From NCBI GenBank assembly GCA_963662265.2, contig CAXXHA010000005.1, forward strand, positions 1 to 60,356: 60,356 nucleotides of DNA, written 5' to 3'. The notes under the pieces were generated by a model that was given only the letters and a program-made list of their open reading frames with translations, ran no database searches and was not told the DNA's origin. Below are positions 12,840-55,302 of this stretch, one piece after another. Numbering within the stretch: position 1 is the first letter of the stretch; each line of letters opens with the position of its first letter. Both the position numbers and the translations under genes were made by a program. This DNA comes from Spirochaetia bacterium (GTDB lineage Bacteria; Spirochaetota; Spirochaetia; CADAEX01).

Positions 12840-14735
12840 TTAATTGACAGGCAGTTTTATAATAAAATCAGCCCCTCCTGCAGATGAAGGCTCAACAGAT
12901 ATTTCTCCTCCATGGTATTCCTTGATAATAAAGAAAGAGATTGAAAGCCCCAGCCCGGTACCCTTGCCGGATTCTTTGGTTGTAAAGAAAGGTTCAAATA
13001 TTTTCTTTTTTATTTCTTCTGAAATCCCCTTGCCGTTATCTTCTATGCTTATAACAACAAACCTTTTATTGTTTGAACTGAATATTGATATGATAAATTT
13101 AGGAGAATCTATCTCATCCTGCTCCATTGCCTGCATGCCGTTATTCAGCACATTAAAAAGAACCTGCTGAATTTTGTTTGGATCGCATAAAACTTCTGGG
13201 ACATCTTCATTTACATTTTTTACAATTTCAACTTTTTTATAATATTTATTTGTACTGATCAGTTTCAGAGTCTCGTTAACCAGGAACGGTATTGAATTCA
13301 GGCTTTTCTTTAGGTTTTCCTTGCGTGAAAAATTAAGCATGCTTTCTGTAATTTCATTAATTTTCTTACCTGAACTTATAATGTTATCCAGTAATTTTTC
13401 CGTTTCCTTCTTTTCCGTAAATATTTCAGAATTCTTTAAAAGAATATCAGCTTTTTCATCATGATCCTTATCAGTTGGTATTTCAAAATCAGCAAACTGT
13501 TCTGATAAAAGCTGTGCCGAGCTTAAAATAACAGTTAATGGATTGTTAATTTCATGTGCCATACCTGCCGCAATACCGCCGATTGACATCATCTTTTCAC
13601 TCTGTATCAGCATCTCTTCTATTCTGAGTTTCTGGGTCATATCGCTTGAAACAATAAACGATGCTTTTTTATCCCAGAGTGTAATATCGTATTTACTTGT
13701 TTCTGCAGGAAATACAGTACCATCCTTTTTTCTGTGCAGTTCATATTTTCCGTCTCTTGATTCAGCAGAATATTCACTCCCTGTTTCCAGCAGATCTGAA
13801 TAAATCATACAAGTGAGTTCTTCCCAGGTATATCCGTATATTTTTGTAGCTGCCGTATTGATATCCAGTATACTGCCGCTTTCAGTTTCAAAAATAATAA
13901 TAGCACTGCCTTCCCTCTCAAAAAGTGTTCTATATTTTTCCTCACTCTCTCTGAGTTCTTTAAGAGTGCTGTAAAGCCTTGAGGTCATTTCATTAAAAGA
14001 GGAGGCAAGTTCACCAATTTCATTCCCTTCAGAAACTGCAACTGAAAGGCCTGTAATATTTCCGTTTATTATCTCGGATGTAGCTTCTGTCAGTTTTGTA
14101 ATAGGCCTGGATATTTTTTTTGAAAGGAGAAAACCTATTATTATATAGGAAACAACTATACTAAGGGCTAATATACCGTAGGAAATAACAATTATTATTG
14201 ATTTAATTTTATAGTAATTTATCTCGTTCTGGATGTTTACAGGTATATTATTCAGCAGGACAGTAAGCTGATTATCTATATCTTTTATACCTGTATAAAT
14301 TATTGCAACAACTTCATTATCTTCCCTTGATGACAATATGTTTTTGCTGAGATATTTTTCAAGATGCGGTTTCAGTTCTTCACAACTGTCAATTATGTTT
14401 TCGGCAGTAAAATAATCTGTATTTTCAATATCAATCAGTAATTTAATAGTATTATTGAATTCCCACAAGGTTAATATTTTATGCCGGTCATCCCTGATAC
14501 TGAAATAATTTTCAAGATAGTTTTCAAATTTACTGAAACTGTTGTTTACTTGTACAAACTGGACCATGCTTCTGTTTAACGGAATAATAGTTTCTATAGA
14601 TCTGTTGGTAATAATAAGCCCATAAGTTCCGGTACCCATTACAATAACAGCCAGAAATACAATAATAAGTGATTTTAAGAATATCTCTTTTTTTATGGAT
14701 CCTTTTTTACTATTCAAAGCTATATATTGTTGCAC
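12840..14735 (-). CDS. HAMP-PAS sensor histidine kinase
   Basis: 2 TM helices, HAMP, PAS, AHEINNPL, DNGKG and GTGLGL. Confidence 0.92.
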   Translation of the reverse strand: MQQYIALNSKKGSIKKEIFLKSLIIVFLAVIVMGTGTYGLIITNRSIETIIPLNRSMVQFVQVNNSFSKFENYLENYFSIRDDRHKILTLWEFNNTIKLLIDIENTDYFTAENIIDSCEELKPHLEKYLSKNILSSREDNEVVAIIYTGIKDIDNQLTVLLNNIPVNIQNEINYYKIKSIIIVISYGILALSIVVSYIIIGFLLSKKISRPITKLTEATSEIINGNITGLSVAVSEGNEIGELASSFNEMTSRLYSTLKELRESEEKYRTLFEREGSAIIIFETESGSILDINTAATKIYGYTWEELTCMIYSDLLETGSEYSAESRDGKYELHRKKDGTVFPAETSKYDITLWDKKASFIVSSDMTQKLRIEEMLIQSEKMMSIGGIAAGMAHEINNPLTVILSSAQLLSEQFADFEIPTDKDHDEKADILLKNSEIFTEKKETEKLLDNIISSGKKINEITESMLNFSRKENLKKSLNSIPFLVNETLKLISTNKYYKKVEIVKNVNEDVPEVLCDPNKIQQVLFNVLNNGMQAMEQDEIDSPKFIISIFSSNNKRFVVISIEDNGKGISEEIKKKIFEPFFTTKESGKGTGLGLSISFFIIKEYHGGEISVEPSSAGGADFIIKLPVN

Positions 14736-40181: not shown

Positions 40182-40231
40182 TGAGGTTTTGTATGTATCA
40201 TATTGGCTATTCCCCTGATTTTGTAGACACT

Positions 40232-41041
40232 TTAATCTGATAAAAACTTATCTTCAAAATCAGCAGGGCTTCGCTCTCCTATTTGTCCATCCCGTCTTTT
40301 TGTATTGTAAAACATTTTAATATAATTAAAAATATCTTTTCTTGCCTCCTCTCTGGTTTTATAAATTTTATTCCTGATTCTTTCTCTTTTAAGATTTGAA
40401 AAGAATGATTCAACTACAGAATTATCCCAACAATTACCTCTTCTACTCATGCTAATTTCCAAAGAGTGGGCCTCACAAAAATCCTCCCAATCCTTACTTG
40501 TAAACTGACACCCTTGATCAGAATGGATAAGAACAGACTTTGTAGGTCTTCTTCTTTTTACTGCCATAAACAAAGCATCCATAACAATAATTGCTTTCTG
40601 ATGATTCTTCATCGACCAGCCAACAACTCCTCTGTTAAATAGATCAATTACTACTGCCAGATATAACCAGCCTTCATAAGTTCGGATATATGTTATATCA
40701 GTACACCAAGCTTGATTTGGCTCAGCAACAGAAAATTCTCTATTCAAAGTATTCTTCTGGTAAATTTCTCCAGGAACCCAAGGTACATGATGCCGTTTCC
40801 GTCTGTAAGCACCTTTTATTCCAGCTACTCTCATCAAACGAGCAACCCGATTAACACCGTAGCTATAACCTGCTTCTTTTAGATCCTCATGTATATTTGG
40901 ACTTCCATATACTTGACCGCTTTCTTCCCAGTAAAAACGGATTAGTTCTGTCACTTTTTTATTTTCTATTGTTCTAGGAGATTCTGGTGTTTTTAACCAC
41001 CGATAAAATCCTGATGGATTAACTTTTAATATCCTGCACAT
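40232..41041 (-). CDS. IS3 OrfB DDE transposase
   Basis: WCTDITYI, HSDQG.QF and GNCWDNSVVESFF. Confidence 0.95.
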   Translation of the reverse strand: MCRILKVNPSGFYRWLKTPESPRTIENKKVTELIRFYWEESGQVYGSPNIHEDLKEAGYSYGVNRVARLMRVAGIKGAYRRKRHHVPWVPGEIYQKNTLNREFSVAEPNQAWCTDITYIRTYEGWLYLAVVIDLFNRGVVGWSMKNHQKAIIVMDALFMAVKRRRPTKSVLIHSDQGCQFTSKDWEDFCEAHSLEISMSRRGNCWDNSVVESFFSNLKRERIRNKIYKTREEARKDIFNYIKMFYNTKRRDGQIGERSPADFEDKFLSD

Positions 41042-41088
41042 AGGGCGAATTGGAAACGCTTTTCTGTTGTCCCGAATAAAAGCGTACT

Positions 41089-41376
41089 TTACTGGGACTC
41101 CTTCGCAAAGTACGCTGCGGCCTTTTTTAAGATATCACGCTCCATCTTAAGCTTTCTGATCTCTGCTTTTAATTCTCTGTTTTCCTTTTCTGCTTCTGTT
41201 AATTTTTTCTTTTCTCGAGACTCCCCGGATTTCCACCCGGCCTTTCTAAGCCAGTTATAAAGAGTAACGTCACTTATTCCTGTTGCTTTTGATACTTCAA
41301 GAACACTGTGTTCTTCTTCCATTATTTGCTTTAATATTTCGTCTTTAAATTCTTCTGTGTAGGGACTCTTTGGCAC
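41089..41376 (-). CDS. IS3 OrfA
   Basis: YTEEFK, HTH and ERDILKKAAAYF; A6G -1 frameshift motif at 41122-41128 (minus). Confidence 0.93.
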   Translation of the reverse strand: MPKSPYTEEFKDEILKQIMEEEHSVLEVSKATGISDVTLYNWLRKAGWKSGESREKKKLTEAEKENRELKAEIRKLKMERDILKKAAAYFAKESQ

Positions 41377-41433
41377 TTTAATACTCCTTAGTTTCTAAGT
41401 ATATCAAGTGTCTACAGTTTTGGGGGAATGCCA

Positions 41434-41589
41434 CATTGCGTTTGGATCGAAAATGATTGAACCTTTTGCTGTTTCTGATAGATGAACAAGACCGCTTAAA
41501 TGTAAATGAGTGCTGTTATCTATATTTTGATCGCCAGAACCTGAATTTATAGCTGCTAATGAATTTTCACTAGATTTTGCATAATTCAT
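41434..41589 (-). pseudogene. Cassette ORF truncated by IS3
   Basis: ATG 41589 directly follows the previous stop; the frame runs into the IS3 end. Confidence 0.55.
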
Positions 41590-41591
41590 AA

Positions 41592-41870
41592 TTATTTTTT
41601 ATCACCAGATGTATTTATAACTGATATGGAACCATTTGATGCTGTTGCCTTATTAATTACTACGTTTTTGAAAATATGCGCAATTACGAGAGCTATTAAA
41701 GCCATAAAAATTAATATAAGAAAGAGAATCATTATTACAAATGTTTGATCTGCAGATAGTTGGGAGAAAATATCTAATGTTATCCATTCTTTGTATAGTG
41801 ACCAAAAAACAGCAGCTCCAACAGTCCCTAACCCTCCAATACCAAGTGCCGCTTTAAAGAATTTTTCCAT
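41592..41870 (-). CDS. Small 2-TM hypothetical cassette protein
   Basis: AGGAGG RBS and two hydrophobic segments. Confidence 0.7.
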   Translation of the reverse strand: MEKFFKAALGIGGLGTVGAAVFWSLYKEWITLDIFSQLSADQTFVIMILFLILIFMALIALVIAHIFKNVVINKATASNGSISVINTSGDKK

Positions 41871-41931
41871 AAGTCCTCCTTATATTATTCTATCACCAAT
41901 TGTATATTACTGTATTACTTATTCTTTTTCC

Positions 41932-42030
41932 GTATAACGCCATCTTCAGCTGAATCCGCCAGCAGGCGCGATTGTTGCAAATGCAAGAATCGTGATCTGC
42001 AAGGATGACTGCTGCAAGACTTTGTTCTAA
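41932..42030 (-). repeat. Canonical-geometry attC site (99 bp)
   Basis: Minus: TTAGAAC-5nt-CTTGCAGC...GCTGAAG-5nt-GTTATAC with one extra base in L''; long internal palindrome. Confidence 0.85.
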
Positions 42031-42039
42031 AGATTTCAT

Positions 42040-42919
42040 CTAAGTATATTCTAATTTAAATTTTTCAATAATTTTTTCTTTATTATATCCTTTTGTAACA
42101 TACAAATTTAATTCATCAAAATAATCTGCTAAAGTTTTTTCCTTATGAATTATAATACCACTAGTTGAGATAAATATTTTGATAACATCAGTGGGAATCA
42201 TTGGTGTTTTCTTTAGATGAATAACGAGATTATCTAAATCACTTTCTTTCAAGTTTCTTCTTTCAGAATTTAATATGATAAAATAGAATGATGCAAAAAA
42301 TTCAAGAGCATCTTCTAACTTTAAAATATAAATCACTTTAATGACTTCTAAAAAAGGTAGTATCTTTTCAATATCATCTAGTCCAATATTTAAAAAAACA
42401 AAATATCTTAGGGCAAAAACCCTATCCTTTATACTGAGCTGTTCATATTTTGTAGACATTTTGATTATTTTGTCGATTCTAGCTAATTTTTGCTTTTGAC
42501 TGAGATTATCAATAATAAAATTACTTGCTTGTATCTTTATTGTTTCAACTTCAGATGCAATCTTTATTGAACTTATTATAGATATAATGATTATTGTTGA
42601 AAATAAGAGCAAGAAACTTAAACTCGCAGTTTTAATATCCCAGGATATTGAATATATAGTCAACATTCCAAGTAGCAAAGTTAAAACGGCTTCAGTCACA
42701 CTATCTTTGCTAATATAGATAGAAATAGAGATAATACTCAAAAATATTGATAGAATAAACTGAGCAGAAAAAACCAGATATTCCTATACTTACAAAAATT
42801 ATAAAGGCTAAAAAAAGAATTATAAAAACAAAATTAGGAAAATCCTTATAGAGTTTTGAAAATACTCCTTTGAGGGATTGCCACGATTTACTTAAAGAGC
42901 TATTTATATCATCATTCAT
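42040..42919 (-). pseudogene. Multi-TM hypothetical cassette protein, frameshift near 42740-42770
   Basis: ORFs 42710-42919 and 42040-42741 join into one hydrophobic N-terminus plus helical C-terminus; ATGAATGA coupling to the upstream gene. Confidence 0.6.
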
Positions 42920-43253
42920 ATCTATTCTTCTTTGATTTGATTATTTTAATAACATCATCATGTCTGTTACCTGCAATAATATCTTTTAGTTTTAAATAAT
43001 TAGCTTCTTTATCGTATTGTAGATGAATTCGCCAGCCAGATATTTTATCAATATCAGCTCTATAGATATTTTGTTTAACTCCTTTGACTCTATGTAATCT
43101 AGATACTGGAAATTCTCTGTTTTTATGACATTCATTATCCTCAAGTTCAGCCAGTGTTTCGAATAATCCTAATCTAAAATTATCTTCTTTAAGTACCTTA
43201 TTTGCTTCATGTATAATTCCATATTCATCTAATATTTTTTTAATTTCAGCCAT
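42912..43253 (-). CDS. Hypothetical protein, possibly RelE/ParE fold
   Basis: LHRVKG..IYRADI...WRIHLQY...C-terminal RHD pattern. Confidence 0.5.
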   Translation of the reverse strand: MAEIKKILDEYGIIHEANKVLKEDNFRLGLFETLAELEDNECHKNREFPVSRLHRVKGVKQNIYRADIDKISGWRIHLQYDKEANYLKLKDIIAGNRHDDVIKIIKSKKNRYE

Positions 43254-43617
43254 TATTGACCTCTTTATTCAATTCATATTGATAAATTGACTGTGTAATT
43301 GATCTGAAAGCTTTTTCGAGATTATCATGGTTTACACAACGGTATAGGGTCAAATTTATACTGTCAAAAATTGGATCATTTTCAAATGAAATAATAATTC
43401 TTATATTTTTATCTATTCTGAATACATACATAGTATCTTCAAGTGAATCACCTAAATTGATTTTCTTAAGTTTGTATAGATCTTTATGTATATTAGAGTT
43501 GTTTTTAAGATGCTCAGAAAGATTGTTAATCTTGGCAACAATTTTAGTTTTAGTGACTTTATCTATTTTTTTTATATCAGATTCAAATTTTTTTGTTGAT
43601 TCTATTAAAATATCCAA
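43246..43617 (-). CDS. RelE/ParE-like toxin
   Basis: ILIESTKKFESDIKKID..KIVAKINNL...YVFRIDKNIRII...LYRCVNHD; TTG start with GGAG RBS. Confidence 0.65.
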   Translation of the reverse strand: MDILIESTKKFESDIKKIDKVTKTKIVAKINNLSEHLKNNSNIHKDLYKLKKINLGDSLEDTMYVFRIDKNIRIIISFENDPIFDSINLTLYRCVNHDNLEKAFRSITQSIYQYELNKEVNNG

Positions 43618-43725
43618 TTTTTCTCCTTTTATCGATTAATACCAAATTCTTTAGAACAAATAAAATAACTATAAAACTATATATCTTATGTATAAAGTAT
43701 ATTATACAGCAAAATTTATTTTCTT

Positions 43726-43779
43726 CGCTCGTCGGCCGGAGGTCCGGGCGTCTTACTCTTGGGGGGCATTTACGATAAC
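43726..43779. repeat. Cassette leader repeat with GC-rich hairpin
   Basis: Near-identical to 52281-52334; the hairpin part is also at 48584-48608. Confidence 0.9.
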
Positions 43780-43825
43780 GTATTGAGAATACCCGAAGAT
43801 GTCGGATACTCCAGATATTTAATTA

Positions 43826-43854
43826 ATCATATACCCGCCAGATTTCACACGCAA
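43826..43854 (-). promoter_or_regulatory. attC-embedded sigma70-like promoter motif
   Basis: TTGCGT-N17-TATGAT. Confidence 0.65.
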
Positions 43855-43889
43855 CAATAAAAAGCTCCGACATTTTGGGTGAACGGCAG

Positions 43890-46419
43890 TGGAAATGGCA
43901 AGTCATTTTCCCCACATTTAGGAAATTAAAAAATCCCCCACCTGCAGAAAAAAATTATACCCCCTTTTTCTCCTGAATTCTATATGAATCTCCCTCAAGG
44001 GAGAAAACATGCGCATGATGTAAAAGGCCTATCAAGCATTGCTGTTGTCATGATTTTCATCACCCATCATTTCAGACCACTGATCAAAACCTTTATTTGA
44101 AGTAATTATTACTGACGATCTTTCATAGAGTTCGCTGATAAGATTAAAAAAAAGATTGGCCTCTTTTCTGTCCGATAGGCGTATAGCCTATTTCATCAAT
44201 AATTAGTAACGAAGATCTGAGAATCCTGTTTATTCTGAATGAACTTGATCTCATAGTTTTCCATTGTTTTCAACAGTTTTATTAGTGAAGTTATCCTTTC
44301 AAAACAGACAGTGTATCCGGCTTCAATTGCCTTGTACCCGAGAGCAATTGATAGATGTGTTTTTCCCCAAGGCCGGGAGGTCCAAAGAACATGATATTTT
44401 TCAGATTTATCTATCCACCTGAAAATCCTTGAGATTATTTAACTGTTCTTCCAGTTATCCCTTTTATTCTTGAAAAAATTGAATGTCCTCAAGTTCCTTA
44501 ATTACAGGAAAATGGGCACCTGTAAGATTTCTATGGAAGACGTCTTTCATTTCTGAAATGTACTTCTTCTGTAAGAAGGATGCTTAAAAAATCAAGATGA
44601 GATTATTTTCTCCTTTGTTGCTTTTTCAAGTGCCTCATCAAGATTAACAGATATTCCCTTTAAGCTTTAGACTATCAAGTATTCCTGTACAGTAATCAAA
44701 AACAGCTCATAAAGCACCTCCTAAAAGACTTACAAGTGAGGTGTAGTAACTTAAATCCCTTTTCTTTACTTCTATGTTTTTTATTCTCATGTTTTTACAG
44801 CTTTTATTCCTGTAAGAAGCTGTGGCAGAATATCCGGATAATTTTCAGTTTCACAGCTTCTTACATAAAGATAAGACTCTTCAAAATTCCTTGCAGATAG
44901 TGTTTCCGTTTTTCAATGCATAAATCTGCAGTTTTTTGCTATTAACTTATCATCAGGATTTGAGTTTATGAAAGCATAAAGCTCGCGCTGCTGATCTCTG
45001 TAATACCTGCTGTATTTTTTGTAATTTCTGATCAACATATTGTTTTCCATGAGTTACTGCTAAATCTGTTCTTTAATTTTTTGATAAACTTCATCGGGGC
45101 TTGGAATCATAATTCCTGAAATGATTATGTTTGGTTATTTTTTTTCCCCCTTTATCGGTGAGATTTTGTGCCTGGCAATCTCTTCTCCATCTATTTTGTC
45201 ATAGATAAAAAGGTCTGTATCTGTTTGGTAAAATCCAGACAGTTTTTTTTCTGAACCTGTTAGGGGACAGAGTAAAATGAAGATGAAACACTTATCAATG
45301 ATTTACTATTTTACTTCCCTTGATTCTTTATTTATGATGCTTTCCCTTCTGAAAAATAGACGGCTTTAATTTTTTTAAAATGTGGAATCTCTTTAAGCAA
45401 AGCTTCTTGAGGAATTATTCCAGTTGCCTGGCATATTTTTACCGTTAGCTCTTCTTGAAAAGCCAATTATTTAATGCCTCCTGTATTTGAATCAAAGGAT
45501 GTGAAAATGTCCTTGCTGAAAAGAAAACTGCTTTTGATGAATTTCACAAAGTTTTCGACTTTACCTTTGCTCTCAGGGTCCTGCTTTTCTGCAGACATAC
45601 ATCTTAAACCCCCTGCTCATCCTTGAAGGCTTTTAAATTCTTTTGTATACTTAATATCTCCGCTGTTTTCTTTAACAACCATGACTTTGTCCTGATCAAT
45701 CACGATTTCTTCAGGTACCCCTCCTATTATTTCAAAAGGTATCAAGTAAATGATTTATCACATCTATGGATTTAAACGGCCTCTTCTGTACTGCTGCATA
45801 CTTGAATCTGCTTACAGATAGAATGACTCCAAAGATATATACTTTCTCACCGGTTTCTATTTCAGTTTCTCCGAAATCAAGCTGTAGTTGTTTTCCATGT
45901 GGAAGTTCTTCAACCGGTGTATAGATTCTCTTGTATTCGTAATTATCTACTTCTCCTGTTTTTCTTTAAGAAAATGAGATAATTTCTCAAAGTCCCCTTT
46001 CAGTGCCGGGAAAGTTCTCCATATTTTTCTTCAAGAACATCATAGATTGATGAAGTGTATATTTTTATTGTTATTTAAATTAAAAATATTCAGTATTTCA
46101 TCTTTGAAAGGAGCAAAAATCTTTTCCTTTTCTACACTGTTTATCTGGTATTCAAGATACTCTGCTTCCGACATTTCAAAGTATTTTCTAACTGTTTTTT
46201 CTGTCTCGATTTTTTAATTCTCTGGATATTTTTCCTTTTTGAATATCCTCTATTCTTGAAAAACTCTTATTTTTTGGTACATATTCATAGTAATCATTTG
46301 AGTCATTCCTGGTAGTTTTTGTCGTGATTACATACTAAGGTTTGACTCTTTTTTTTTTCCTATAGGGTGGGGAATTTTATTTTTCCATCCTATAGGGGAT
46401 TTCATGTTTACCATTTCCA
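43890..46419 (-). mobile_element. IS21-family element (2530 bp); istA (~46288-44712) and istB (~44710-43980) heavily frameshifted
   Basis: Ends TGGAAATGG...CCATTTCCA; 6-bp target duplication CGGCAG (43884-43889 and 46420-46425); fragments LQLDFG, PESKGKVENFVKF, GKTHLSIALG and TSNKGFDQW. Confidence 0.9.
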
Positions 46420-46489
46420 CGGCAGTTATTCCCAAGCTTTTACTGCTTATGCCTGAAACCGTGGTATTCTCTGTTATGTTTAGTTCAAA

Positions 46490-47583
46490 ATCTGACATAA
46501 TTAAATTTTTTTCAAAGTACATGGAGGTACTTTGAAATCCCGATTTATATTAAGTCAAATATTTCAACAGAGTATTTTTTTCTCCAAAAAACTCAACAAC
46601 TGTGTCCAATAGCTGTTTTTTACAGCTTTTAAAATATCAATTAATTCATTCTTATCTAGCGAATAATCAATATAAAAATGATTGTATTACACCATGTCTG
46701 TAATTAATAATATCTGAAATCCTTTTTTCAATGAAAGTAATCTTAGAACCAAGTCTTTTCTTTTTTATATAGGATACTTCTTATATCTATATTTTAACCA
46801 ATCTTTATATGCTAGATTTAATTTATCAAGATTTTGAAAGACATATCTAGATGCGATAAAGTCTTCAATAGTTTTCTGATCTCTACTAATTTCAAGTAAT
46901 TCTTGAAAATCTAATTTTTGTTTATAATTTTTTCGATATTCAAGCGCGTTTTTTATCATATTTAATTAAAACTTTAAAAGTCTCCTGAAAGAAATTTTCG
47001 AACATGGATACAGCAAAAGGAAACTAATCCATTATAGAGAACTCTAGAAGGATCATTTCTTTTCATCCATTTCTAAAGTATCATCAAATTTATCGCCAGT
47101 TGGATTTCCATATTGTGCATAATCACCAGGAATTGCTATTTCAAGTTTAGACATATTTTGTGAAATATTTTCATATATCAATGCAATTCCTCTACTTATT
47201 GGTGTTGATTTATCTTTCCATAGAGGAGCATAACGATTGGTTCCATAATCCCCTGTGATTTTTCCCCCATACACATTTACGTGCTGAACGCAAAACGTGA
47301 TTAAGCATTTCTACATCATAATAACTTGCATGATACAGGTTTTCTAACATGAAGTCCCCAACGGCAAGTTGAAAAAAACAATATCGTCATCTTTAAGAGG
47401 GTAGATATCTGCCGATACTCCATCAAATGACTTAAAATCCTCTGTTTCAAACCATGCATAATTTAAAGTTTCTTCTGGCCAATCCCAAAGATGATTGCAT
47501 TTATGAAAATTGAGATTTTCAAGCAACTCTTTTAAATCAGATTTGGTTGCTCTTTCTGGATATAAAGTAAGATCTCTTCCCAT
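46490..47583 (-). pseudogene. Fragmented hypothetical cassette gene(s)
   Basis: Consecutive ORF pieces 47344-47583, 47053-47274 and 46765-46959 within one cassette; 3' limit uncertain. Confidence 0.5.
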
Positions 47584-47648
47584 ATTTCCTTCTTCTTCCG
47601 AGCCAAGGATGGCGAGGTTTGATTACCCTTATTTAGATTTTGAATTGA

Positions 47649-47812
47649 ACATAACGTTTCAGAAATATATGAAGATGCCAGACGATCTCCATATGAAATA
47701 ATCATATACCTGCTTATATATCATCGCAACACAAAAAGTTCTGGCATTTTGGGAAAGTCTGTCTACATTCATTTTTACTACACCAGACTTGATCATATAT
47801 TTCTTGTTACAA
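47649..47812 (-). repeat. Long attC-like site, family A (164 bp)
   Basis: Plus: TAAC-gtttc-agaaatatatga...tcatatatttct-t-GTTA with two internal stems. Confidence 0.9.
47701..47729 (-). promoter_or_regulatory. attC-embedded sigma70-like promoter motif
   Basis: TTGCGA-N17-TATGAT. Confidence 0.65.
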
Positions 47813-47910
47813 GCAGTATTCTCGCAATACCCAAGCCCGTACAGCGGAGCTAGGGCTGGACGTTTATACCATATATAATCTTCTATATCTGTTATAAAAA
47901 AGACATTACT

Positions 47911-48540
47911 TTATGGTAAGAAAGTGAAATATTTCTCCGGAATAGATTTACTATCATAAATCACTCTTGGATTATTTATTTTATTCGTAATAATATCTTC
48001 AATAAATATGATATAAGCTTTTGGAAATATCTTTTCAAATGATTCTGGAAGTTCATTTAATTTATTGTGCCATAAAAGAATAAACTCAATGTCTGTATTT
48101 AGTCCAATTATATTCTCAAAACTCATTAAATTTGAATTTGTGAGTGAGAAGTGTTTCAGTTTTTTATTAGCTGTTAAATCTAATTTCTTAAATAAAAAAT
48201 CATCTCCTTCAATCCAAAGAGACTTTAATTCTGGGAGTAATTTTAAAAAAGAATAATTACTAATTCTTGTAGTAAAGAAATCAAGTCTTTCTAAATTCTT
48301 AAAGTCAGTTAGGAAAGAATAATCGTTGATGTTATTTATCATACTAAAATCAATATGAGTAACTTTATCTATATTCTCTGGAAGTATTTTTATTATTCCT
48401 GTTTTTGAAAATGCTATTTTTCCATCTTTTATAGGTAGAGAAATAGTTTCATTATTATAAGTAATATATTTTATCGAATTTTGTGAGTAAGCTGCAGTCG
48501 AGGTTAATAAAATTGTAATAATTAAAAACACTTTTTTCAT
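47911..48540 (-). CDS. Secreted leucine-rich-repeat protein (cassette)
   Basis: Signal peptide and LxxLxLxxN-type repeats. Confidence 0.75.
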   Translation of the reverse strand: MKKVFLIITILLTSTAAYSQNSIKYITYNNETISLPIKDGKIAFSKTGIIKILPENIDKVTHIDFSMINNINDYSFLTDFKNLERLDFFTTRISNYSFLKLLPELKSLWIEGDDFLFKKLDLTANKKLKHFSLTNSNLMSFENIIGLNTDIEFILLWHNKLNELPESFEKIFPKAYIIFIEDIITNKINNPRVIYDSKSIPEKYFTFLP

Positions 48541-48631
48541 AAGTTAATCCTATTCGTAGCATAATATTATTATTTCATTTCTTCGCCCGTCGGCCGGAGG
48601 TCCGGGCGATCTTCTCTTGCGAGAAAATTGC

Positions 48632-48794
48632 TTGTAACGTTTCAGAAATATATGAAGTTGCCAGGCCGATACATTTAAAATAATCATACACCTGCTGATA
48701 ATACTCCGCAACATAAAACATTCTGGCAATTTGGATGAAGGCTGTTTGCTTTCTTTTTTACTCTCCAGCCTGAATCATATATTTCTTGTTAGCA
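48632..48794 (-). repeat. Long attC-like site, family A (163 bp)
   Basis: Same outer stem and architecture as 47649-47812. Confidence 0.9.
48683..48711 (-). promoter_or_regulatory. attC-embedded sigma70-like promoter motif
   Basis: TTGCGG-N17-TATGAT. Confidence 0.65.
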
Positions 48795-48859
48795 GCAGTT
48801 CGCCCCTCTCTTATCCGGTTCTTTGATATTTCTAAAAATATACAGTAAAAAATATATAA

Positions 48860-49402
48860 TCATATCCTCCCTAATTGTGAATGATACTGATAATAATATT
48901 CATAAAAATCATTTTTACTAATTTCTAATATTTTTTTCCGCATACTTTCTGGATATTTTTCTAGATCCAATCTACCTTCTTCCGTAAAAATTTCAGGATG
49001 TTTGAGCATCTGATATAATGTAAATGCTGCCATAGCTATATTCTGTTCTTCATTAAGCAGTCTTAAACCATAACAAGTAAACATAATATACTTTTCATTA
49101 ACTGATGGATCAAATTCCATATTATCTTGAGAATCTTTGTCAGCATGTTTTAAAAAATTGTATGATTCTTTCAATTTATTAATCCACAATTTTCTATATT
49201 CATCTTTTATTAATAATGAATCATATAATAAATCTCTGCCTTTTTGCTTTGTATTAATATCGTGTACTATTTGGTATGCTGAACAAGTTAGTGTATGAAT
49301 TGCAATCGGATCATCATCCTGAAACCATAGTTTAATAGCTATAGTTATTTGTCTTTTTGCAGCTTCTATTTTAGAAATGTTTATTTTTTCCATTTTTTCC
49401 AC
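48860..49402 (-). CDS. Hypothetical helical protein with HEPN-like motif (cassette)
   Basis: SKIEAAKRQI..AI.LWF...IAIHTL...A and YNFLKHAD. Confidence 0.55.
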   Translation of the reverse strand: MEKMEKINISKIEAAKRQITIAIKLWFQDDDPIAIHTLTCSAYQIVHDINTKQKGRDLLYDSLLIKDEYRKLWINKLKESYNFLKHADKDSQDNMEFDPSVNEKYIMFTCYGLRLLNEEQNIAMAAFTLYQMLKHPEIFTEEGRLDLEKYPESMRKKILEISKNDFYEYYYQYHSQLGRI

Positions 49403-49981
49403 TTCATTTTATTTAAATCTTTCAAAAATAATTGATAATCATTTATAACACTTTCAATATGTTCATAAAATTCATTTAAAACATGTTCACCATGATCTAG
49501 TTTTTTAATTACTTCGACGGGAATGCTTTTTTGTTCCCATCTATTCCATAGTTCAATAAAATTTGTTAATTCTATATACCAGTTTCTGGTTTCTGATAAA
49601 GCTAAACCCATTTTTTCTTTAATTATTTTTTGCATCTCTCGATATTGTGGTAATAAATCATCTGTTAATTGTTTATTATCATAATTTATTATTTTATCAA
49701 ATGGTTCAAAATATTCTTCATGATCAAAAAATGGTTTTACTATGTTTTTCGCATATTTCTTTCCAAGAAATATCAGCAGCTTTACTAATTTTTAAACGTA
49801 ATTCTGATTTTGCTTGTATATCTTTTCTCAATCCTAATAATGGTGAATATAATTCATTTATTTGTTTTTCATAAAAGTCAATTTTTTTTTGAAATACAGC
49901 TTGTCGTACTCCAAAGAAAACTCCAAAAAGACCAGCTAAAAAAGTAAACAATGGAGGAATCAATATTTTAATTATTTCCAT
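49381..49981 (-). pseudogene. Single-TM-anchored hypothetical cassette protein, frameshift near 49725
   Basis: ORFs 49724-49981 and 49381-49635 join across an A6 run. Confidence 0.6.
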
Positions 49982-50043
49982 ATTTTTAACCTCTTATATC
50001 TTATTTCTACTTGATCAGGAGAATATTTCTTGGGGCGAATTGA

Positions 50044-50207
50044 TGCTAACGTTTCAGAAATATATGAAGTTGCCAGACCGCTTCACATATAATAATCATA
50101 CACCTGCTGAAAATACTCAGCAACAGAAAACATTCTGGCAATTTGGATAAAAACTGTTTACTTCCAATTATGCTTCTCCAGTTTTTATCATATATTTCTT
50201 GTTATAT
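50044..50207 (-). repeat. Long attC-like site, family A (164 bp)
   Basis: Same outer stem; inner stems aagttgccaga/tctggcaattt and gataaaaactg/cagtttttatc. Confidence 0.9.
50095..50123 (-). promoter_or_regulatory. attC-embedded sigma70-like promoter motif
   Basis: TTGCTG-N17-TATGAT. Confidence 0.65.
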
Positions 50208-50214
50208 GTTTTTT

Positions 50215-50736
50215 TTATTGGAGTGGCCACGGAAAGATACCCCTTGTAAATGATTTTTGTATTAATTCAATTCCTGAAATAAGTTTTTCTCTGTCTTTTC
50301 CAGATCCATGATATCCAATAATTCTTAGAACATGTTCATCATCAAGTTTGAGATAACATGCTATTATTTCACTCCACATATAAAAATATATATTTATTGT
50401 TTCTAAATCATCTATGATTGTCTTCTTTAATGTATAATCATCAATGTCTGAAAAGCGTTTAATGATAAATGTTTCAAGATTATCCTCAGTCATATTTAAT
50501 ATTGTAAAAGATACTTTTGCTGAATTTGGATTTTGACCACCTTTATCAATATTTATAGCTGGATCAGGTCTGAATAATTGGATAAATTCTGATTTAAAAT
50601 CTTCTCGTGAATTTAGATTCCAATCGTCATAATAGTTGAATGAAAAATAATTATTATAATTATATTGAATGATTTCTTGAGAAAAAACTGAAACAACAAA
50701 TAGTAAATGGAAAATGATAAAAACTTTTACTTTCAT
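50215..50736 (-). CDS. Secreted hypothetical protein (cassette)
   Basis: Signal peptide and GGAG RBS; fills the cassette. Confidence 0.75.
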   Translation of the reverse strand: MKVKVFIIFHLLFVVSVFSQEIIQYNYNNYFSFNYYDDWNLNSREDFKSEFIQLFRPDPAINIDKGGQNPNSAKVSFTILNMTEDNLETFIIKRFSDIDDYTLKKTIIDDLETINIYFYMWSEIIACYLKLDDEHVLRIIGYHGSGKDREKLISGIELIQKSFTRGIFPWPLQ

Positions 50737-50763
50737 AAATTATTATCTCCAATAAAAAATTAC

Positions 50764-50933
50764 ATATAACGTTCTGAGAATACCCGAAGATGTCGGGTCT
50801 TCCACGTATTAAAATAATCATACAACCACCAGTTTCCACCTGCAACATAAAAAGGCCCGACATTTTGGGTGAAAGGCAGTTAAGCCCCAAAATTTTTACT
50901 GCTTATGCCTGAACCGGGTATTCTCTGTTATCG
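50764..50933 (-). repeat. Long attC-like site, family B (170 bp)
   Basis: Plus: TAAC-gttct-gagaatacccg...cgggtattctc-t-GTTA; inner stems gatgtcgggtctt/aaggcccgacatt and aggcagttaagc/gcttatgcct. Confidence 0.9.
50817..50845 (-). promoter_or_regulatory. attC-embedded sigma70-like promoter motif
   Basis: TTGCAG-N17-TATGAT. Confidence 0.65.
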
Positions 50934-51040
50934 GATGTGCCCCCCTCTCTTGTCCAAGCCGTACGACGGAGTCAAGGTCTGGCTTTTTATCTATCTCTCG
51001 ATTATATTTCAAGATAACATTATTTTTAGATAATCTTAGT

Positions 51041-52216
51041 TTAATCTATCTGTTCAATAATTTCTTTTGCATTATCCGTCTCTTTATTACAATTTGGTGA
51101 TTCTATAAGTCTTTTATAAAAATTCTTTACGTCTAAATCACCTAATATATACCATACTTGACTATTTTTATTTCCTATTTCTAATAACATTTCTATTTCT
51201 TTATCTGTCCAATCTTGAATATGTTTAATCTTATCAATAACGGTATGAGTATTCGTAAAACTAAGACTGCTTTCAAGTGCTAAAATACCATTCAATCTTT
51301 CTTTATTTTGTTCTTGAGTCTTTTTATCATATGATTTGTCATTATCAATTTGTTCTAAAATATTTTTTGAATGAAAAACTTCAAGTTGCTCATTGGAAAC
51401 AGTTCTTACAATTATTGCTTTTATTAATTTGTCCAATTCTGAATCTTCAGAATAATCAGCTGGAGAGAAATATTTAATTCTATTTTCCCTCATCATTTTA
51501 TAAACTTTAGTTTTATCCTTTGTTTCAACATTATATACGCCTATTGAATGCCCCCCATAAGAATTAACTAATTTCATACACGGGATATCAGTGTCACTAT
51601 CACCAATATAAATTATATTTCTGAATGGCACTCTAATTTTATCTGATGAAAAGCTATCATTTACACTTTGGTCATTAATATCCAAAACACCTTTTTCTAT
51701 TCTGAATAAAAACTGAGTCTTATTTGTATAATTTATTGCTTGAGCTGGCCACTTTGCAATATCATATTCATCAAAATAAAAAGAACTTGCATATATTTTT
51801 TCAAATTCTTTTGCAACTGATGTTCCTTCAATCATTTCTTTTAAACCAGATGAAATTATATAATGTTCAATTATAACATCGCGTTTAATGCCATAATCTC
51901 TTATTCTTGAGAACCAATCTTCTACTCCAGGGAAAAGAGTAACTTTTTCACCATATTCCCTTAACACTTTTTTTGTTACTGACTGCATCCCTACTGATGT
52001 TTGAAGCATTGTATACATATATGCTAGATTTTGATCCATTTCATTATCAGTAGCAAGCTTATTTGATCTCTCCCAAAAAGTTTTTATATCATATCCAACT
52101 GACTGTATAAATCCTTGAGCTTGCATATCGTCAGGAGAAAGGGTTTTATCAAAATCATAGCAAATCGCTATAACAGGTTTTTCTTCCTTTTTTCTTCTTG
52201 AGAACTGCTCTGACAT
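51041..52216 (-). CDS. HAD-superfamily hydrolase (first cassette)
   Basis: YDFDKT (motif I), IISSG (II), K (III) and IGDSDTD (IV). Confidence 0.85.
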   Translation of the reverse strand: MSEQFSRRKKEEKPVIAICYDFDKTLSPDDMQAQGFIQSVGYDIKTFWERSNKLATDNEMDQNLAYMYTMLQTSVGMQSVTKKVLREYGEKVTLFPGVEDWFSRIRDYGIKRDVIIEHYIISSGLKEMIEGTSVAKEFEKIYASSFYFDEYDIAKWPAQAINYTNKTQFLFRIEKGVLDINDQSVNDSFSSDKIRVPFRNIIYIGDSDTDIPCMKLVNSYGGHSIGVYNVETKDKTKVYKMMRENRIKYFSPADYSEDSELDKLIKAIIVRTVSNEQLEVFHSKNILEQIDNDKSYDKKTQEQNKERLNGILALESSLSFTNTHTVIDKIKHIQDWTDKEIEMLLEIGNKNSQVWYILGDLDVKNFYKRLIESPNCNKETDNAKEIIEQID

Positions 52217-52322
52217 ATCTGTAGATCCTCCTCTTTACTTTTTTGTAGTCTAATTCAATTCATAATCATTATAATCTTATCGCCCGTCGGCCGGAGGTCC
52301 GGGCGATCTTCTCTTGGGGGGC

Positions 52323-52350
52323 ATTTACGATAACTATAATTATATGCACT
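52323..52350 (-). other. Array entry site: attI candidate with dif-like 11-6-11 organisation
   Basis: Minus AGTGCATATAA-TTATAG-TTATCGTAAAT; contains the G|TT of the first cassette; no attC hairpin upstream. Confidence 0.7.
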
Positions 52351-52625
52351 CATCTATTTTTACTCTCTAGGAAATTTTCCTAAAAACTGTACAACTTCTC
52401 TCCTTTACTAGATATCCGGCTGCTGTATAACCCTCATACTCAGCTCAAAAAGCTGTCACTATTGTTCTACTGAAACTGTCTTAACAGTTTCCATGAGTCT
52501 CTAAATCATTATTTCGTGTATTTGTTCTTAATTTTAAAAGTTATATGCATGATCCATTACTATTCTGAAGGAATTATACTGAAAATAATATTTCTCCGAT
52601 AATTTCCGGAAGATTTTACCTGGTC

Positions 52626-53129
52626 CTACACAGCAAGCTTTTCCCACTCTTCCCGTGGAAGTACTTTTTCATCGCTGTTGTAGTCTGTAAACAGTATGCC
52701 GTACAGGTGGTCTATCTCGTGTTGAAAAAGCTCTGACATGTCATCATTGAACACCTTTTTAATCTTGTTTCCCTTCTGGTCAAGGTATTCAACTTTTATT
52801 GACCTGTGCCTGGTTATGTACTTGAAAAATGCGACTTCTGCGCTGAAGCAGCTGTCCCATACCTCAAATGTGTCATCACTCTTTTCAATAATTACCGGGT
52901 TAATCATTACAATTGTTTCATCCCCTCTCTCCATGTAGACAGCTTTTTTAAGCACACCTATCTGGGGAGCTGCAATTGCCCTTCCTATTTTGTATTTTTT
53001 CCGGCAGTAATGGAGTGTGTCTGAAAGGTCTTTTATAAGTGAATCAACATCATCATAGAAGAAATTAATATCCTTGCTTTTCTCTTTGAGAAGCGGATTC
53101 TCAATTGTTAATACATCTTTAATAGCCAT
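52626..53129 (-). CDS. def: Peptide deformylase (variant motifs)
   Basis: GRAIAAPQIG, DSCFS (canonical EGCLS) and QHEIDHLYG. Confidence 0.85.
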   Translation of the reverse strand: MAIKDVLTIENPLLKEKSKDINFFYDDVDSLIKDLSDTLHYCRKKYKIGRAIAAPQIGVLKKAVYMERGDETIVMINPVIIEKSDDTFEVWDSCFSAEVAFFKYITRHRSIKVEYLDQKGNKIKKVFNDDMSELFQHEIDHLYGILFTDYNSDEKVLPREEWEKLAV

Positions 53130-53301: not shown

Positions 53302-55302
53302 ATGAACAGTTTAAAAAGATATTTGCACCTTATTGTTTTACCGATTATCTGCGTCTCTGCAACTGCCCTGCCGCTGTCAGATACAAGTTTTTTAAAGGCT
53401 GAAAAAGGGGTTCTTGATTTAAGTTCCTGGGATTTTCAGAAAGACGGTTCTGTTTCTCTGGGCGGAGAATGGATATATTTTCCTGAACAGAGGATTTATC
53501 CTGAAAACATTAAATACTATAAAACTTCTCATAATTATCATTATATGAATGTTCCCGGATACTGGAACAATATTGAAGTTAATAACAAAAAGCACGGCGG
53601 AATGGGTTTCGGTACTTTGAGCCTTAAAATTATTCTTCCTGAATACAGCAACAATCTGCGGATAATGACCAGCGATTTTCTTACTGCATATGATTTTTAT
53701 GCAGGAAGTGACAAAGTTATTTCTGTAGGTGAATTCGGTAATGACAAGTATTCATCAAAACCTGCTTTCGGGACTTACACAGCTTCAGTAAAAACAGATG
53801 ACAATATACTTGATATCACTGTTCATCTCTCAAACTTCCATCACAGGGACGGCGGAATGTTTGATGTGCCTCTTCTGGGTTCAGACACAAAGATTTGGTA
53901 CCATTTCAGGCTGACTCTTATTTTTAACATAATACTCTTCTCTTCACTTTTTATAATGGGACTTTACAATATTTTCCTTTATCACCTTTACAAGTATTAC
54001 AGGGACCTTCTGTTTTTCGGAACATTCTGTCTTATTTTTGCTGTCAGGGTTCTTACAACGGGAGACGCGTTCGGTTATGTTTTCTTTCCGCAGATAGGAT
54101 GGAATATTTTCAACAAGCTTGAATATATTACTTTCTATCTTTCTGTACCCTGTTTCATAATGTATATTTTCACCAATTCTCCAGATGTTTTTTCAAACAA
54201 ATTTCCTAAAGCCATAATATTTATCAGCCTTCTTTTCACAGTTGCAGTCTATTCAACACCATCATATATATATACACATCTTATATCTTATTATGAAATT
54301 ATGACTGCACTTGCAGGATTGTATATCTTAATAAGGCTTATAAAACTTCACCTGGTTCACAGAAAAAAATCAAAAATAATGTTTACAGGTTTTATTGTAA
54401 TTTATCTTCCCCTTATAAATGATGTACTTTATACACACAATATTACATCAACAGGCTACCTGGTTCCATACGGACTGTTTGCACTTATTTTTATTCAGGG
54501 AGTCATTATAACAAACAGGATTTCCAGGGCTTTTCATACAGTTGCCAGTCAGTCGGATGAGCTTGTTATGATGAACATGGAGCTTCTAGATGAGATAAAC
54601 AAGAGGAAAAACCTTGAAACAAACCTCCGCCAGTCTCATGAAAATGTGGCGCAGTCCCGGTTCGCTATTATTATGGGGCTTGCAAAACTTGCAGAGCACC
54701 GCGACAGCTGTACAGGCGAGCATCTTGAAAGGATACAGGAATACAGCAGGACCCTTGCCATGGAGCTTTCAGGTTTTGATGAATACAGGGATTATATAAC
54801 TGATGAATACATAGACGATATTTACCACTCATCCATTCTTCATGATATCGGCAAGGTTGGTGTTCCAGATTCCATACTTTTAAAAACAGGCAGTCTTACA
54901 GAGGAAGAATTTGAACTTATAAAACAGCATCCTGTTATAGGGGGTAATGCAATTGAAAACCTTGAAAAGCAGATGGATAATTCACTTCTTACCCTTGGAA
55001 GGGAAATTGTCTACCATCATCATGAAAAATGGGATGGTTCCGGTTATCCTTACGGATTAATGGGCAGTAATATTCCACTTTCCGCCCGAATTGTTGCTCT
55101 TGCAGATGTTTACGATGCTCTTACTTCAGAACGGCCCTATAAGAGGGCATATTCGCATGATACGGCACACGAAATAATCATGATGGGAAAAGGTACACAT
55201 TTTGATCCTCTTATTATAGAGGCGTATCAGAAATGCATTGAAAGGTTCAAGATTATAAGGGAAGGCTACAGCAGGGGTCTTGTTTTTTACACCCACCTGT
55301 AG
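53302..55302 (+). CDS. 7TM-DISM sensor with HD-GYP phosphodiesterase domain
   Basis: Extracellular domain, about 7 TM helices, HDIGK and HHEKWDGSGYP. Confidence 0.9.
   Translation: MNSLKRYLHLIVLPIICVSATALPLSDTSFLKAEKGVLDLSSWDFQKDGSVSLGGEWIYFPEQRIYPENIKYYKTSHNYHYMNVPGYWNNIEVNNKKHGGMGFGTLSLKIILPEYSNNLRIMTSDFLTAYDFYAGSDKVISVGEFGNDKYSSKPAFGTYTASVKTDDNILDITVHLSNFHHRDGGMFDVPLLGSDTKIWYHFRLTLIFNIILFSSLFIMGLYNIFLYHLYKYYRDLLFFGTFCLIFAVRVLTTGDAFGYVFFPQIGWNIFNKLEYITFYLSVPCFIMYIFTNSPDVFSNKFPKAIIFISLLFTVAVYSTPSYIYTHLISYYEIMTALAGLYILIRLIKLHLVHRKKSKIMFTGFIVIYLPLINDVLYTHNITSTGYLVPYGLFALIFIQGVIITNRISRAFHTVASQSDELVMMNMELLDEINKRKNLETNLRQSHENVAQSRFAIIMGLAKLAEHRDSCTGEHLERIQEYSRTLAMELSGFDEYRDYITDEYIDDIYHSSILHDIGKVGVPDSILLKTGSLTEEEFELIKQHPVIGGNAIENLEKQMDNSLLTLGREIVYHHHEKWDGSGYPYGLMGSNIPLSARIVALADVYDALTSERPYKRAYSHDTAHEIIMMGKGTHFDPLIIEAYQKCIERFKIIREGYSRGLVFYTHL

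Follow-up and report, generated by a model that had tools for sequence, protein, structure and literature searches.

The 60,356-nucleotide window analyzed here contains, at positions 41438-52334, a genuine array of mobile gene cassettes, which confirms the earlier observation on this DNA. Approximately 7 cassettes, all in one direction and with their genes on the minus strand, are accompanied by six sites in 10.9 kb, namely one canonical attC and five long sites, one of them split by an insertion sequence, which measure 157-165 nt from TAAC to GTTA on the plus strand, or 163-171 nt with the 7-nt R boxes included (Table 1). By the definition of a CALIN (at least 2 attC sites and no integrase nearby), the array is one, provided that its sites count as attC, because the window carries no recombinase gene: no tyrosine recombinase was found on the 60-kb contig by a TIGR02249 search or by tblastn with both recombinases of the genome. 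We favor, with a probability of roughly 0.6, the interpretation that the array is a CALIN of a distinct attC-like class, worked in trans by an insert-less IntI-like recombinase encoded on another contig of the same genome (C10). The original prediction of an integrase-less array holds for the contig; the genome, however, encodes both a true IntI, on contig C8, and the insert-less recombinase.

Table 1. Features of the cassette array and its surroundings (R1, model for the window's site class; R2, model of the genome's classical attC; S1 to S5, long sites)
Feature	Coordinates	Strand	Details
IS3-family insertion sequence	40204-41437	-	ORFs 41089-41376 and 40232-41041; Pfam HTH_Tnp_1, rve
Last cassette, truncated by the IS3 element	41438-41930	-	ORFs 41592-41870, 41404-41589; no family match
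Classical attC	41931-42031	+	Symmetric 5/5 spacer; one bulged base on the plus-strand 3' arm
Cassette region	42032-43775	-	ORFs 42040-42741, 42710-42919, 42912-43253, 43246-43617 (last weakly ParE-like)
Site S1	43776-43890 (5' part), 46414-46476 (3' part)	+	Window's class; interrupted by IS21-family element
IS21-family element in S1	43891-46413		Compared with genome copies
Cassette	46477-47651	-	Short ORFs 46765-46959, 47053-47274, 47344-47583; no family match
Site S2	47652-47809	+	R1 158.8 bits; fold; scanner (stem 12, spacers 5/1)
Cassette	47810-48634	-	ORF 47911-48540 (weak leucine-rich-repeat match); 5' leader 48583-48637
Site S3	48635-48791	+	R1 159.1 bits; fold; scanner
Cassette	48792-50046	-	ORFs 49724-49981, 49381-49635, 48860-49402 (weak HEPN match)
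Site S4	50047-50204	+	R1 153.5 bits; fold; scanner
Cassette	50205-50766	-	ORF 50215-50736; no family match
Site S5	50767-50931	+	R1 187.8 bits; fold; scanner
First cassette	50770-52333	-	Leader 52280-52334; HAD-like phosphatase ORF 51041-52216 (weak Pfam HAD); includes site S5
attI-like junction, array start	52334-52349	-	Crossover between 52333 and 52334
Peptide deformylase gene (def), context, outside array	52626-53129	-	Pfam Pep_deformylase 124 bits

All of the elements originally described for the five long sites, an R-box pair, a 5/1 spacer, a perfect stem and two hairpins, are present in the sequence, and a direct-repeat search recovered the sites as families. Rfam gave no match in the window at the gathering score and none in 52190-52360 at E values up to 5. 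Coexistence with one canonical attC was likewise correctly called: this site scores 70.9 bits with R2, can be aligned with 19 sites of C8 and folds at -20.5 kcal/mol on the plus strand versus -14.7 kcal/mol on the minus strand. The far end of the array has been removed by the IS3-family element, of which the genome has 4 further full-length copies at 99% identity. The IS21-family copy within S1 contains approximately 56-59 extra single bases compared with 4 other full-length genome copies and short-read contigs; because these bases are missing from the latter, the broken frames of the window copy are probably assembly errors. Evidence for the cassette between S1 and S2 includes pairing of the S2 flank with the S1 core. 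The conserved 5' leader recurs (43725-43779) at the opening of the cassette region next to the classical attC, and the start of this region, as read from the sequence, is not complementary to the core of the site that follows downstream. At the other end, the attI-like junction shares 20 identical nucleotides with C10:163637-163656, and in a four-way alignment its core is similar to the attI region adjoining the C10 recombinase gene and to the array junction at the syntenic position in the sister genome G001. The peptide deformylase gene lies upstream of the array in the same direction, and the same neighbor is present in G001.

One common plus-strand fold was obtained by DNA folding for 4/4 intact window sites and 3/3 copies from C10. 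In it, the TAAC/GTTA pair is followed by a bulge of 4-5 nt that is confined to the 5' arm, by an uninterrupted stem of 11-12 bp and by a three-way junction from which two hairpins extend. Across 7 sites, alifold yielded a consensus of 34 pairs, 14 of which carry compensatory changes. Among 65 sites from 5 genomes, in an alignment that had been fitted to the structure model, 95.1% of the cells pair, versus 36-47% with slid partners, and double changes occur in 28 of the 34 pairs, a number reached by 0/500 shuffles. The structure of the sites is under constraint: as in the R and L boxes of attC, TAAC and GTTA are nearly invariant in the class and the stem pairs show compensatory change. The proposal that the sites form two unrelated families is rejected, since they are homologous, with 76% mean column identity and conserved loop motifs, and only their stems differ. 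The non-coding strand had been put forward as the folding strand. In favor of this, a nearly invariant G.T pair occurs at two positions, on the plus strand only (59 rows each of the 65-site alignment), whereas by folding energy the plus strand is the more stable one in only 3/7 sites, which speaks against it.

The sites do depart from the classical design, as originally suggested, but length and branching do not set them apart, given that the class spans 80-171 nt and that the genome's classical attC sites are also branched. Rather, the class is defined by the 5/1 spacer, found in 52/63 of its sites, and by the unbroken stem (ungapped over at least 9 bp in 51/63). In the classical attC of this genome, spacers are symmetric and ungapped pairing extends over no more than 4-6 bp (20/20 sites). 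Two further attC hallmarks, a spacer unpaired on both arms and extrahelical L-box bases, are present in these classical sites and absent from the window's class, in which the tip is variable and often branched.

Cassette boundaries and the sharing of cassettes between genomes were observed directly. The 4 nt beside the core pair with the next downstream site at a mean of 3.08/4 positions, with 16/40 perfect, compared to 1.64/4 and 103/3000 perfect for random site pairs. By eye, 4/4 consecutive window pairs as well as the attI-like junction fit cassette-specific core complementarity. Both integron signatures, exchange at G|TT and a cassette start complementary to its own R'' core, were found. 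Furthermore, the first cassette is 99.5% identical over 1567 nt to positions 13062-14627 of L031, in the main array of G001, and the match stops exactly at the crossover points; the shared backbone of G001 and the source genome is at 96.4% and the other flanks at 70-80%. The same cassette is present in runs of two other studies, with 0 differences in 1406 nt (record X4) and 4 in 1405 nt (record X5), and backbone pieces in these runs differ by 3-9%. Cassette content at the G|TT points varies between genomes, so that the observation originally named as refuting, content that never varies at these junctions, does not apply.

The recombinase of C10 is a 266-aa IntI-like tyrosine recombinase without the IntI-specific insert, and it adjoins sites of the window's class. 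Its TIGR02249 score is 204.9 bits versus the cut-off of 265, and the match falls into two segments that leave out model positions 178-239; the combination that marks integron integrases, PF00589 plus the IntI-specific insert near patch III, was not found in this protein. The best fold match of its model is the Vibrio integron integrase VchIntIA on a folded VCR site (2a3v, E 8e-18), which is also the second match by sequence (132.6 bits) and differs in that residues 189-245 of its chain are unmatched in the C10 protein. Across the alignment of the insert-less family, the catalytic R, K, H, R, H and Y are invariant, and the length is constant at 265-266 aa across many metagenomes. In a tree built by a quick search and with IntIs from spirochaetes only, the family forms its own clade beside IntI, with a support of only 82 for the sister position.

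The true IntI of the source genome (G000) is encoded on C8, carries both PF00589 and the insert (382.6 bits with TIGR02249) and adjoins a stretch of approximately 60 kb whose attC are classical, with bulged bases and 5/5 spacers. R1 found zero sites on C8, R2 found 31-40, all classical, and the R2 matches in this genome lie on C8, C30 and C2 and at the canonical site of the window, with none on C10. Conversely, sites of the window's class lie near the insert-less gene: in G000 (C10), G001, G099 and G028 they are divergent from it and start at a distance of 0.2-0.4 kb, in G064 the distance is 4.6 kb, and G002, G009 and G020 have them 1-1.5 kb downstream of a longer insert-less relative. A true IntI adjoins an array of the classical class in G000, G001, G002 and G064. 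The pairing of site class with recombinase class is a feature of the genomes themselves, and the two-system arrangement recurs in three related genomes. The insert-less system also occurs in other phyla: records labelled Peribacteria, Gammaproteobacteria and Spirochaetes carry the same site design upstream of insert-less relatives.

Among 101 related genomes, which are non-independent, sites of the window's class were detected in 17; R1 and R2 are sequence-specific, and therefore missed sites are expected. A P0001-like (insert-less) gene is present in 15 of these 17 genomes and an IntI over the cut-off in 9; the 8 without one include the complete genome G009, in which IntI is broken by 3 stops. 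Overall, 27/101 genomes have a P0001-like gene, and a P0001-like match was also obtained in 12 of the 84 genomes in which no sites were detected. Specificity of site type is not absolute: one classical site lies within an array of the window's class in G064, a stretch of approximately 300 kb in G009 carries at least 27 class sites and 8 classical ones among the matches listed, in one orientation, and the G041 array is mixed in site type. Because the classes mix in these genomes and in the window, a single enzyme may accept both, or arrays may fuse.

From these data, we infer a mechanism in which the plus strand (the non-coding, 'bottom' strand) would fold into a hairpin and then be cleaved at TAA|C, after the second A, corresponding to G|TT on the coding strand. 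The acting enzyme would be the 266-aa recombinase of C10, supplied in trans, which has no I2 helix region, the part that holds extrahelical bases in classical integrases; residues 189-245 of VchIntIA reportedly form the pocket for these bases. The 4-nt spacer bulge may provide the asymmetry in place of the classical extrahelical bases, and cassette insertion would take place at two positions, the attI-like core (...AG|TT) that lies downstream of def and the attI adjoining the C10 gene. The broader proposition, that insert-less relatives of IntI function as cassette integrases and have a site grammar of their own, with a spacer bulge in the role of the extrahelical bases, and that they operate alongside classical integrons within the same cells and in several phyla, stands in our view at even odds.

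A true IntI would be able to act in trans in 9/17 site-bearing genomes, and the sites could be a local dialect of ordinary attC that is recombined in trans by the C8 IntI, the insert-less relative being decayed or re-purposed. This would fit the presence of a true IntI in G000, G001, G002 and G064, the TAAC/GTTA core common to both site classes and the mixing of classes within some arrays. We nevertheless consider it unlikely, given that in 4/4 examined genomes IntI has its own adjacent classical array and the other class begins at the insert-less gene, that 8/17 site-bearing genomes have no IntI over the cut-off, and that the insert-less family has conserved its length and catalytic residues. 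In addition, the sites have no extrahelical bases, which classical IntI reportedly needs. The mixed arrays in the window, G064, G009 and G041 and the shared core triplets could also mean that both recombinases serve both classes, in a single cassette pool of interchangeable designs and no enzyme specificity. This is less probable still, because arrays adjoining each gene are nearly pure: on C8 all sites are classical by R2 and none were found by R1, whereas all 19 sites of the G001 array belong to the other class.

That the repeats are palindromic and intergenic, and followed in some cases by a conserved leader with promoter-like boxes, would also suit structured intergenic repeats (REP- or MITE-like, or terminators) rather than recombination sites. 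This seems very improbable in view of the cassette-specific complementarity over consecutive sites, the recurrence of one cassette, identical and delimited precisely by the cores, in the array of another genome, the strict one-way orientation and the start of arrays beside a recombinase gene in several genomes.

The preferred reading, a CALIN worked by the insert-less C10 enzyme, shares with sedentary chromosomal integrons and CALINs (PMC4889954) cassettes that run in one direction, are mostly of unknown function and terminate in an imperfect palindrome with AAC/GTT cores, as well as the G|TT crossover, cassette-specific core complementarity, homogeneous sites per lineage, and arrays that start at an attI beside a divergent tyrosine recombinase, with satellite arrays without one. 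It differs in that the neighboring recombinase has no IntI-defining insert, the spacers are 5/1 rather than roughly 5/5, no extrahelical bases occur in the first 11-12 bp, and the source genome also carries a fully classical integron of the other design. In the field, gain of the I2 insert is regarded as the step that enabled an Xer-like enzyme to act on folded single strands (Escudero et al. 2016, PMC4792948; 2020, PMC7790495), and recombinases without the insert near attC are regarded as not being integrases (Cury et al. 2016, PMC4889954). Our literature search found no published description of such an insert-less cassette system. If the interpretation is correct, the I2 insert would not be required for integron-type cassette capture, the insert-less systems would represent either the long-sought Xer-integron intermediate or a streamlined offshoot, and current integron finders would mislabel such arrays as orphan CALINs or overlook them. 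Tools that demand the insert or a classical site model may underestimate the cassette pools of spirochaetes and candidate-phyla bacteria. The source genome is a natural control, with a classical IntI and bulged sites beside an insert-less relative and spacer-bulge sites; since two enzymes and two site types occur in one organism, enzyme-site co-adaptation is directly testable.

With Xer recombinases (XerA 4a8e, 5hxy; XerD 1a0p), the C10 protein shares the size class, the two-domain build and the absence of an insert; archaeal XerA is its top sequence match (138 bits), with bacterial XerD at only 62 bits. Unlike Xer genes, the C10 recombinase gene heads cassette arrays. A housekeeping Xer/dif role, which would call for a near-universal gene in the clade and one dif site, was rejected, because the C10-type gene is present in only 27/101 related genomes and as many as dozens of sites are arrayed together; C11 of the source genome carries a separate gene that is Xer-like. 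The Treponema chromosomal integrons described by Wu et al. (2013, PMC3607928) resemble the present case in host phylum, chromosomal arrays and variable attC length (63-132 bp), and one species keeps its sites after loss of intI; they differ in having typical R and L boxes, a protruding G and IntI, as opposed to the unbulged sites and insert-less enzyme here. The same source states that, among spirochaetes, integrons are limited to the Treponema clade, which is not borne out by today's genomes, because IntI and classical arrays are found in the related genomes.

The array in the window, as originally predicted, is built on a class of attC-like sites distinct from the classical ones and lacks an integrase: the sites share a conserved, covarying fold, and no tyrosine recombinase was found on C5, the 60,356-base contig that constitutes the window and is one of the 41 contigs of a 3.77-Mb spirochaete assembly (genome G000). 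Almost every ORF between 41438 and 52334 is encoded on the minus strand, with long repeats separating them, and the single canonical attC site expected to coexist with the long ones was confirmed. The near end of the array is an abrupt junction (52333|52334), approximately 290 nt downstream of a co-oriented peptide deformylase gene. The cassette genes showed no or weak family matches (HAD-like, LRR, HEPN-like, ParE-like); chromosomal cassettes commonly carry such genes. The whole window produced no match to Rfam at the gathering score, and an inverted-repeat listing of the window was of no help toward additional sites. Relative to 4 other copies in the genome and to short-read contigs from the likely source sample, the IS21-family copy within S1 (43891-46413) has 56-59 single-base insertions, and the missing long ORFs in this copy are therefore probably an assembly artefact rather than decay.

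Coordinates of sites, insertion elements, leader copies and the classical integron
Feature	Position	Strand and extent	Remark
S1	43776-43890 + 46414-46476	+ strand, TAAC to GTTA	split by IS21-family element
S2	47652-47809	+ strand, TAAC to GTTA	sequence reading
S3	48635-48791	+ strand, TAAC to GTTA	sequence reading
S4	50047-50204	+ strand, TAAC to GTTA	sequence reading
S5	50767-50931	+ strand, TAAC to GTTA	sequence reading
Sixth site, other kind (classical)	41931-42031		within window array
IS3-family element	40204-41437		truncates far end of array
Leader copies	window 43725-43779, 48583-48637, 52280-52334; L009 (locus on contig C10) 4203-4260		18 more in G001 and G002 arrays
Classical sedentary chromosomal integron	C8:14337-78853		loci L046, L047, L048, L010

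All 7 intact copies of the window-type site that were folded (4 in the window and 3 on C10, another contig of G000) share a common + strand DNA fold, in which a TAAC/GTTA helix of 4-5 bp is followed by a 4-5-nt bulge in the 5' arm only, a stem of 11-12 bp without breaks and a three-way junction carrying two hairpins. The two families of sites in the window, initially considered unrelated, turned out to be homologous, with a mean column identity of 76% and main differences that are compensatory (14 of 34 pairs). The proposed genome search with a covariance model built from the sites (R1) yielded 65 sites from five genomes. In the alignment of these sites, which was fitted to R1 itself and hence flatters the pairing figures, 95.1% of the cells are paired, compared with 36-47% when the partners are slid, and double changes occur in 28 of the 34 pairs, a value reached by none of 500 shuffles. 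Length, previously regarded as a hallmark, is not one: because the sites span 80-171 nt, length and branching are variable extras of the class. On the + (non-coding) strand, suggested earlier as the one that folds, two G.T pairs are almost invariant among the 65 sites; minimum free energy, used as a test of strand choice, differed inconsistently between the strands and gave no signal, so that the case for the + strand as the putative folding strand rests on the G.T pairs and analogy.

Between two convergent ORFs and distant from the array, a 35-45-nt stretch at 26392-26436 matches the inner part of S3 and S4 at 82-94% identity; it may be a site relic. Matches of a generic scanner (AAC, spacer, stem, spacer, GTT; background of ~13 chance matches per 60 kb at a stem of 9) at locus L143 were rejected as sites, being unrelated GC-rich hairpins beside an insert-bearing integrase.

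The core-adjacent bases of consecutive sites are complementary at a mean of 3.08 of 4 positions, perfectly so in 16 of 40 cases, compared with a mean of 1.64 and 103 perfect cases among 3000 random site pairs. Such complementarity is classically left by cassettes that were once circles cut at G|TT, and the window-type sites thus appear to be integron-type recombination sites. Over 1567 nt, the first cassette (50770-52333) matches a cassette within the main array of the sister genome G001 at 99.5% identity; the identity stops at both cores, with the left backbone at 96.4% and the right flank at only 70-80%. The G001 array at the same chromosomal place has different content. The same cassette is present in contigs from the runs of two other studies, differing at 0 of 1406 and 4 of 1405 nt, whereas the backbone pieces of these contigs, where compared, differ by 3-9%. 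The runs were compared as contigs, in which rare circles are not visible. Joints in the run contigs were rejected as evidence of excision or empty sites, since most have sides of 20-24 letters and derive from paralogous sites elsewhere in the genome.

The absence of an integrase holds for the contig but not for the genome, which encodes a true IntI and an insert-less relative. TIGR02249 identified one true integron integrase (IntI) in G000, on contig C8, scoring 382.6 bits against a cut-off of 265 and carrying an N-terminal extension of ~90 aa. To its left, a tract of ~60 kb into which IS21 and IS3 copies have inserted holds at least 31 attC sites, each ~104 nt long. These sites follow the classical design, reading ATAAC, 5 unpaired nt, an L stem with two extra bases in the 3' arm, 5 unpaired nt and GTTAT, and their ungapped stems are no longer than 4-6 bp in 20 of 20 sites. 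More sites of the classical class were observed on C30 and C2.

The second recombinase (P0001) is encoded on C10, the only contig of G000 besides C5 on which the R1 search detected window-type sites; there, the sites start 0.26 kb from the divergent recombinase gene. Its 286-aa frame has a true start at Met20, giving a protein of 266 aa, which is 34% identical to the C8 IntI and lacks 43 residues where the IntI-specific insert would be. The protein falls below all curated cut-offs (IntI, 204.9/265; archaeal XerA, 206.1/220; XerC, 155; XerD, 150). Against solved structures, it scored 132.6 bits with the Vibrio integron integrase 2a3v, 138 with XerA and 62 with XerD, its alignment to 2a3v being split into two segments that leave out chain residues 189-245. 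The best structural match of its model (pLDDT 84) was 2a3v. Relatives comprise hundreds of proteins of 265-266 aa, named only 'tyrosine-type recombinase' or XerD, and the catalytic residues are invariant across this insert-less family. Direct repeats of ~16 nt (GCAATACAGACAATT-like) flank the gene in L009, one (1694-1710) directly past the recombinase stop and the other (2628-2645) within the attI region; they could be integrase-binding repeats or a sign that the recombinase gene is a mobile unit.

Among 101 related genomes, which are not independent of each other, 17 contain the window-type sites, and the search for co-occurring recombinases recovered a P0001-like gene in 15 of these 17 and a true IntI in 9. 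In G001, G099 and G028, the sites start beside the insert-less gene; in G064 (Marispirochaeta), the distance is 4.6 kb. True IntI instead adjoins arrays of classical sites in G000, G001, G002 and G064. G002, G009 and G020 carry longer relatives with an N-terminal extension, likewise devoid of the insert, 1-1.5 kb upstream of window-type arrays and co-oriented with them. The same site design was found upstream of insert-less relatives in records labelled Peribacteria, Gammaproteobacteria and Spirochaetes. A quick tree of 41 rows, with IntIs from spirochaetes only, placed 18 IntIs in one clade (support 100) and 17 insert-less proteins in a second (95). These clades are sister groups (82); the longer forms branch just outside them, and Xer proteins are distant, on long branches. 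The genomic context supports well the assignment of the C10-type enzyme to the window-type sites as their candidate recombinase. Apparent internal stops in the insert-less genes of G001 and G099 were dismissed as an effect of an over-long query, both frames being intact from Met.

The two site classes are not always kept apart. Besides the window array, one classical site lies inside a window-type array of G064, and the G041 array is also mixed. In the complete genome G009, the ~300-kb tract C1:1876646-2177518 is a very large mixed array with at least 27 window-type and 8 classical sites among the listed rows, all oriented alike; three stops interrupt the true IntI of this genome. The mixing thus suggests cross-reaction, array fusion or a shared enzyme. 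How the window array came to lie downstream of the deformylase gene (def) can be read in two ways. The 15 nt preceding the crossover at 52334 are similar to the attI region next to the C10 gene, a 20-nt identity spanning the junction, and also to the main attI of G001 and to the junction of the syntenic array in that genome. We read the junction as a putative attI-like docking site served in trans; it could instead be a secondary-site insertion. Between G000 and G001, the deformylase gene (52626-53129; 13076-13631 in the G001 locus L045) shares just 70% identity, compared with 96% for the nearby backbone. The next gene, encoding a 7TM-HD protein (53302-55302), is unmatched at the G001 locus. 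The sequence right of the array may be variable in its own right.

Among earlier reports, Treponema integrons are described with classical sites of 63-132 bp and a protruding G (PMC3607928), Cury et al. 2016 (PMC4889954) did not accept as IntI those recombinases near attC sites that lack the insert (the 50 cases may include spirochaete ones), and Smyshlyaev et al. 2021 (PMC8138268) described the insert as 'not fully conserved' in the integron-like subgroup, yet essential for function. No paper linking insert-less relatives to cassette arrays or giving this site design was found in the literature searched, supplements apart. New here are the presence of both cassette systems side by side in one genome, a site grammar made explicit through measurements of 63 sites, and a cassette common to arrays of different genomes.

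Some cassettes begin, exactly at the crossover, with a leader of ~55 nt, of which 22 copies precede unrelated genes in three genomes. The leader contains a near-invariant GC-rich hairpin of 25 nt with a CCTCC loop; an AT-rich stretch that often bears a TGnTATAAT-like box separates this hairpin from the ORF. The leader region had no match in Rfam at E values up to 5. It may be a portable promoter, insulator or translation-control module.
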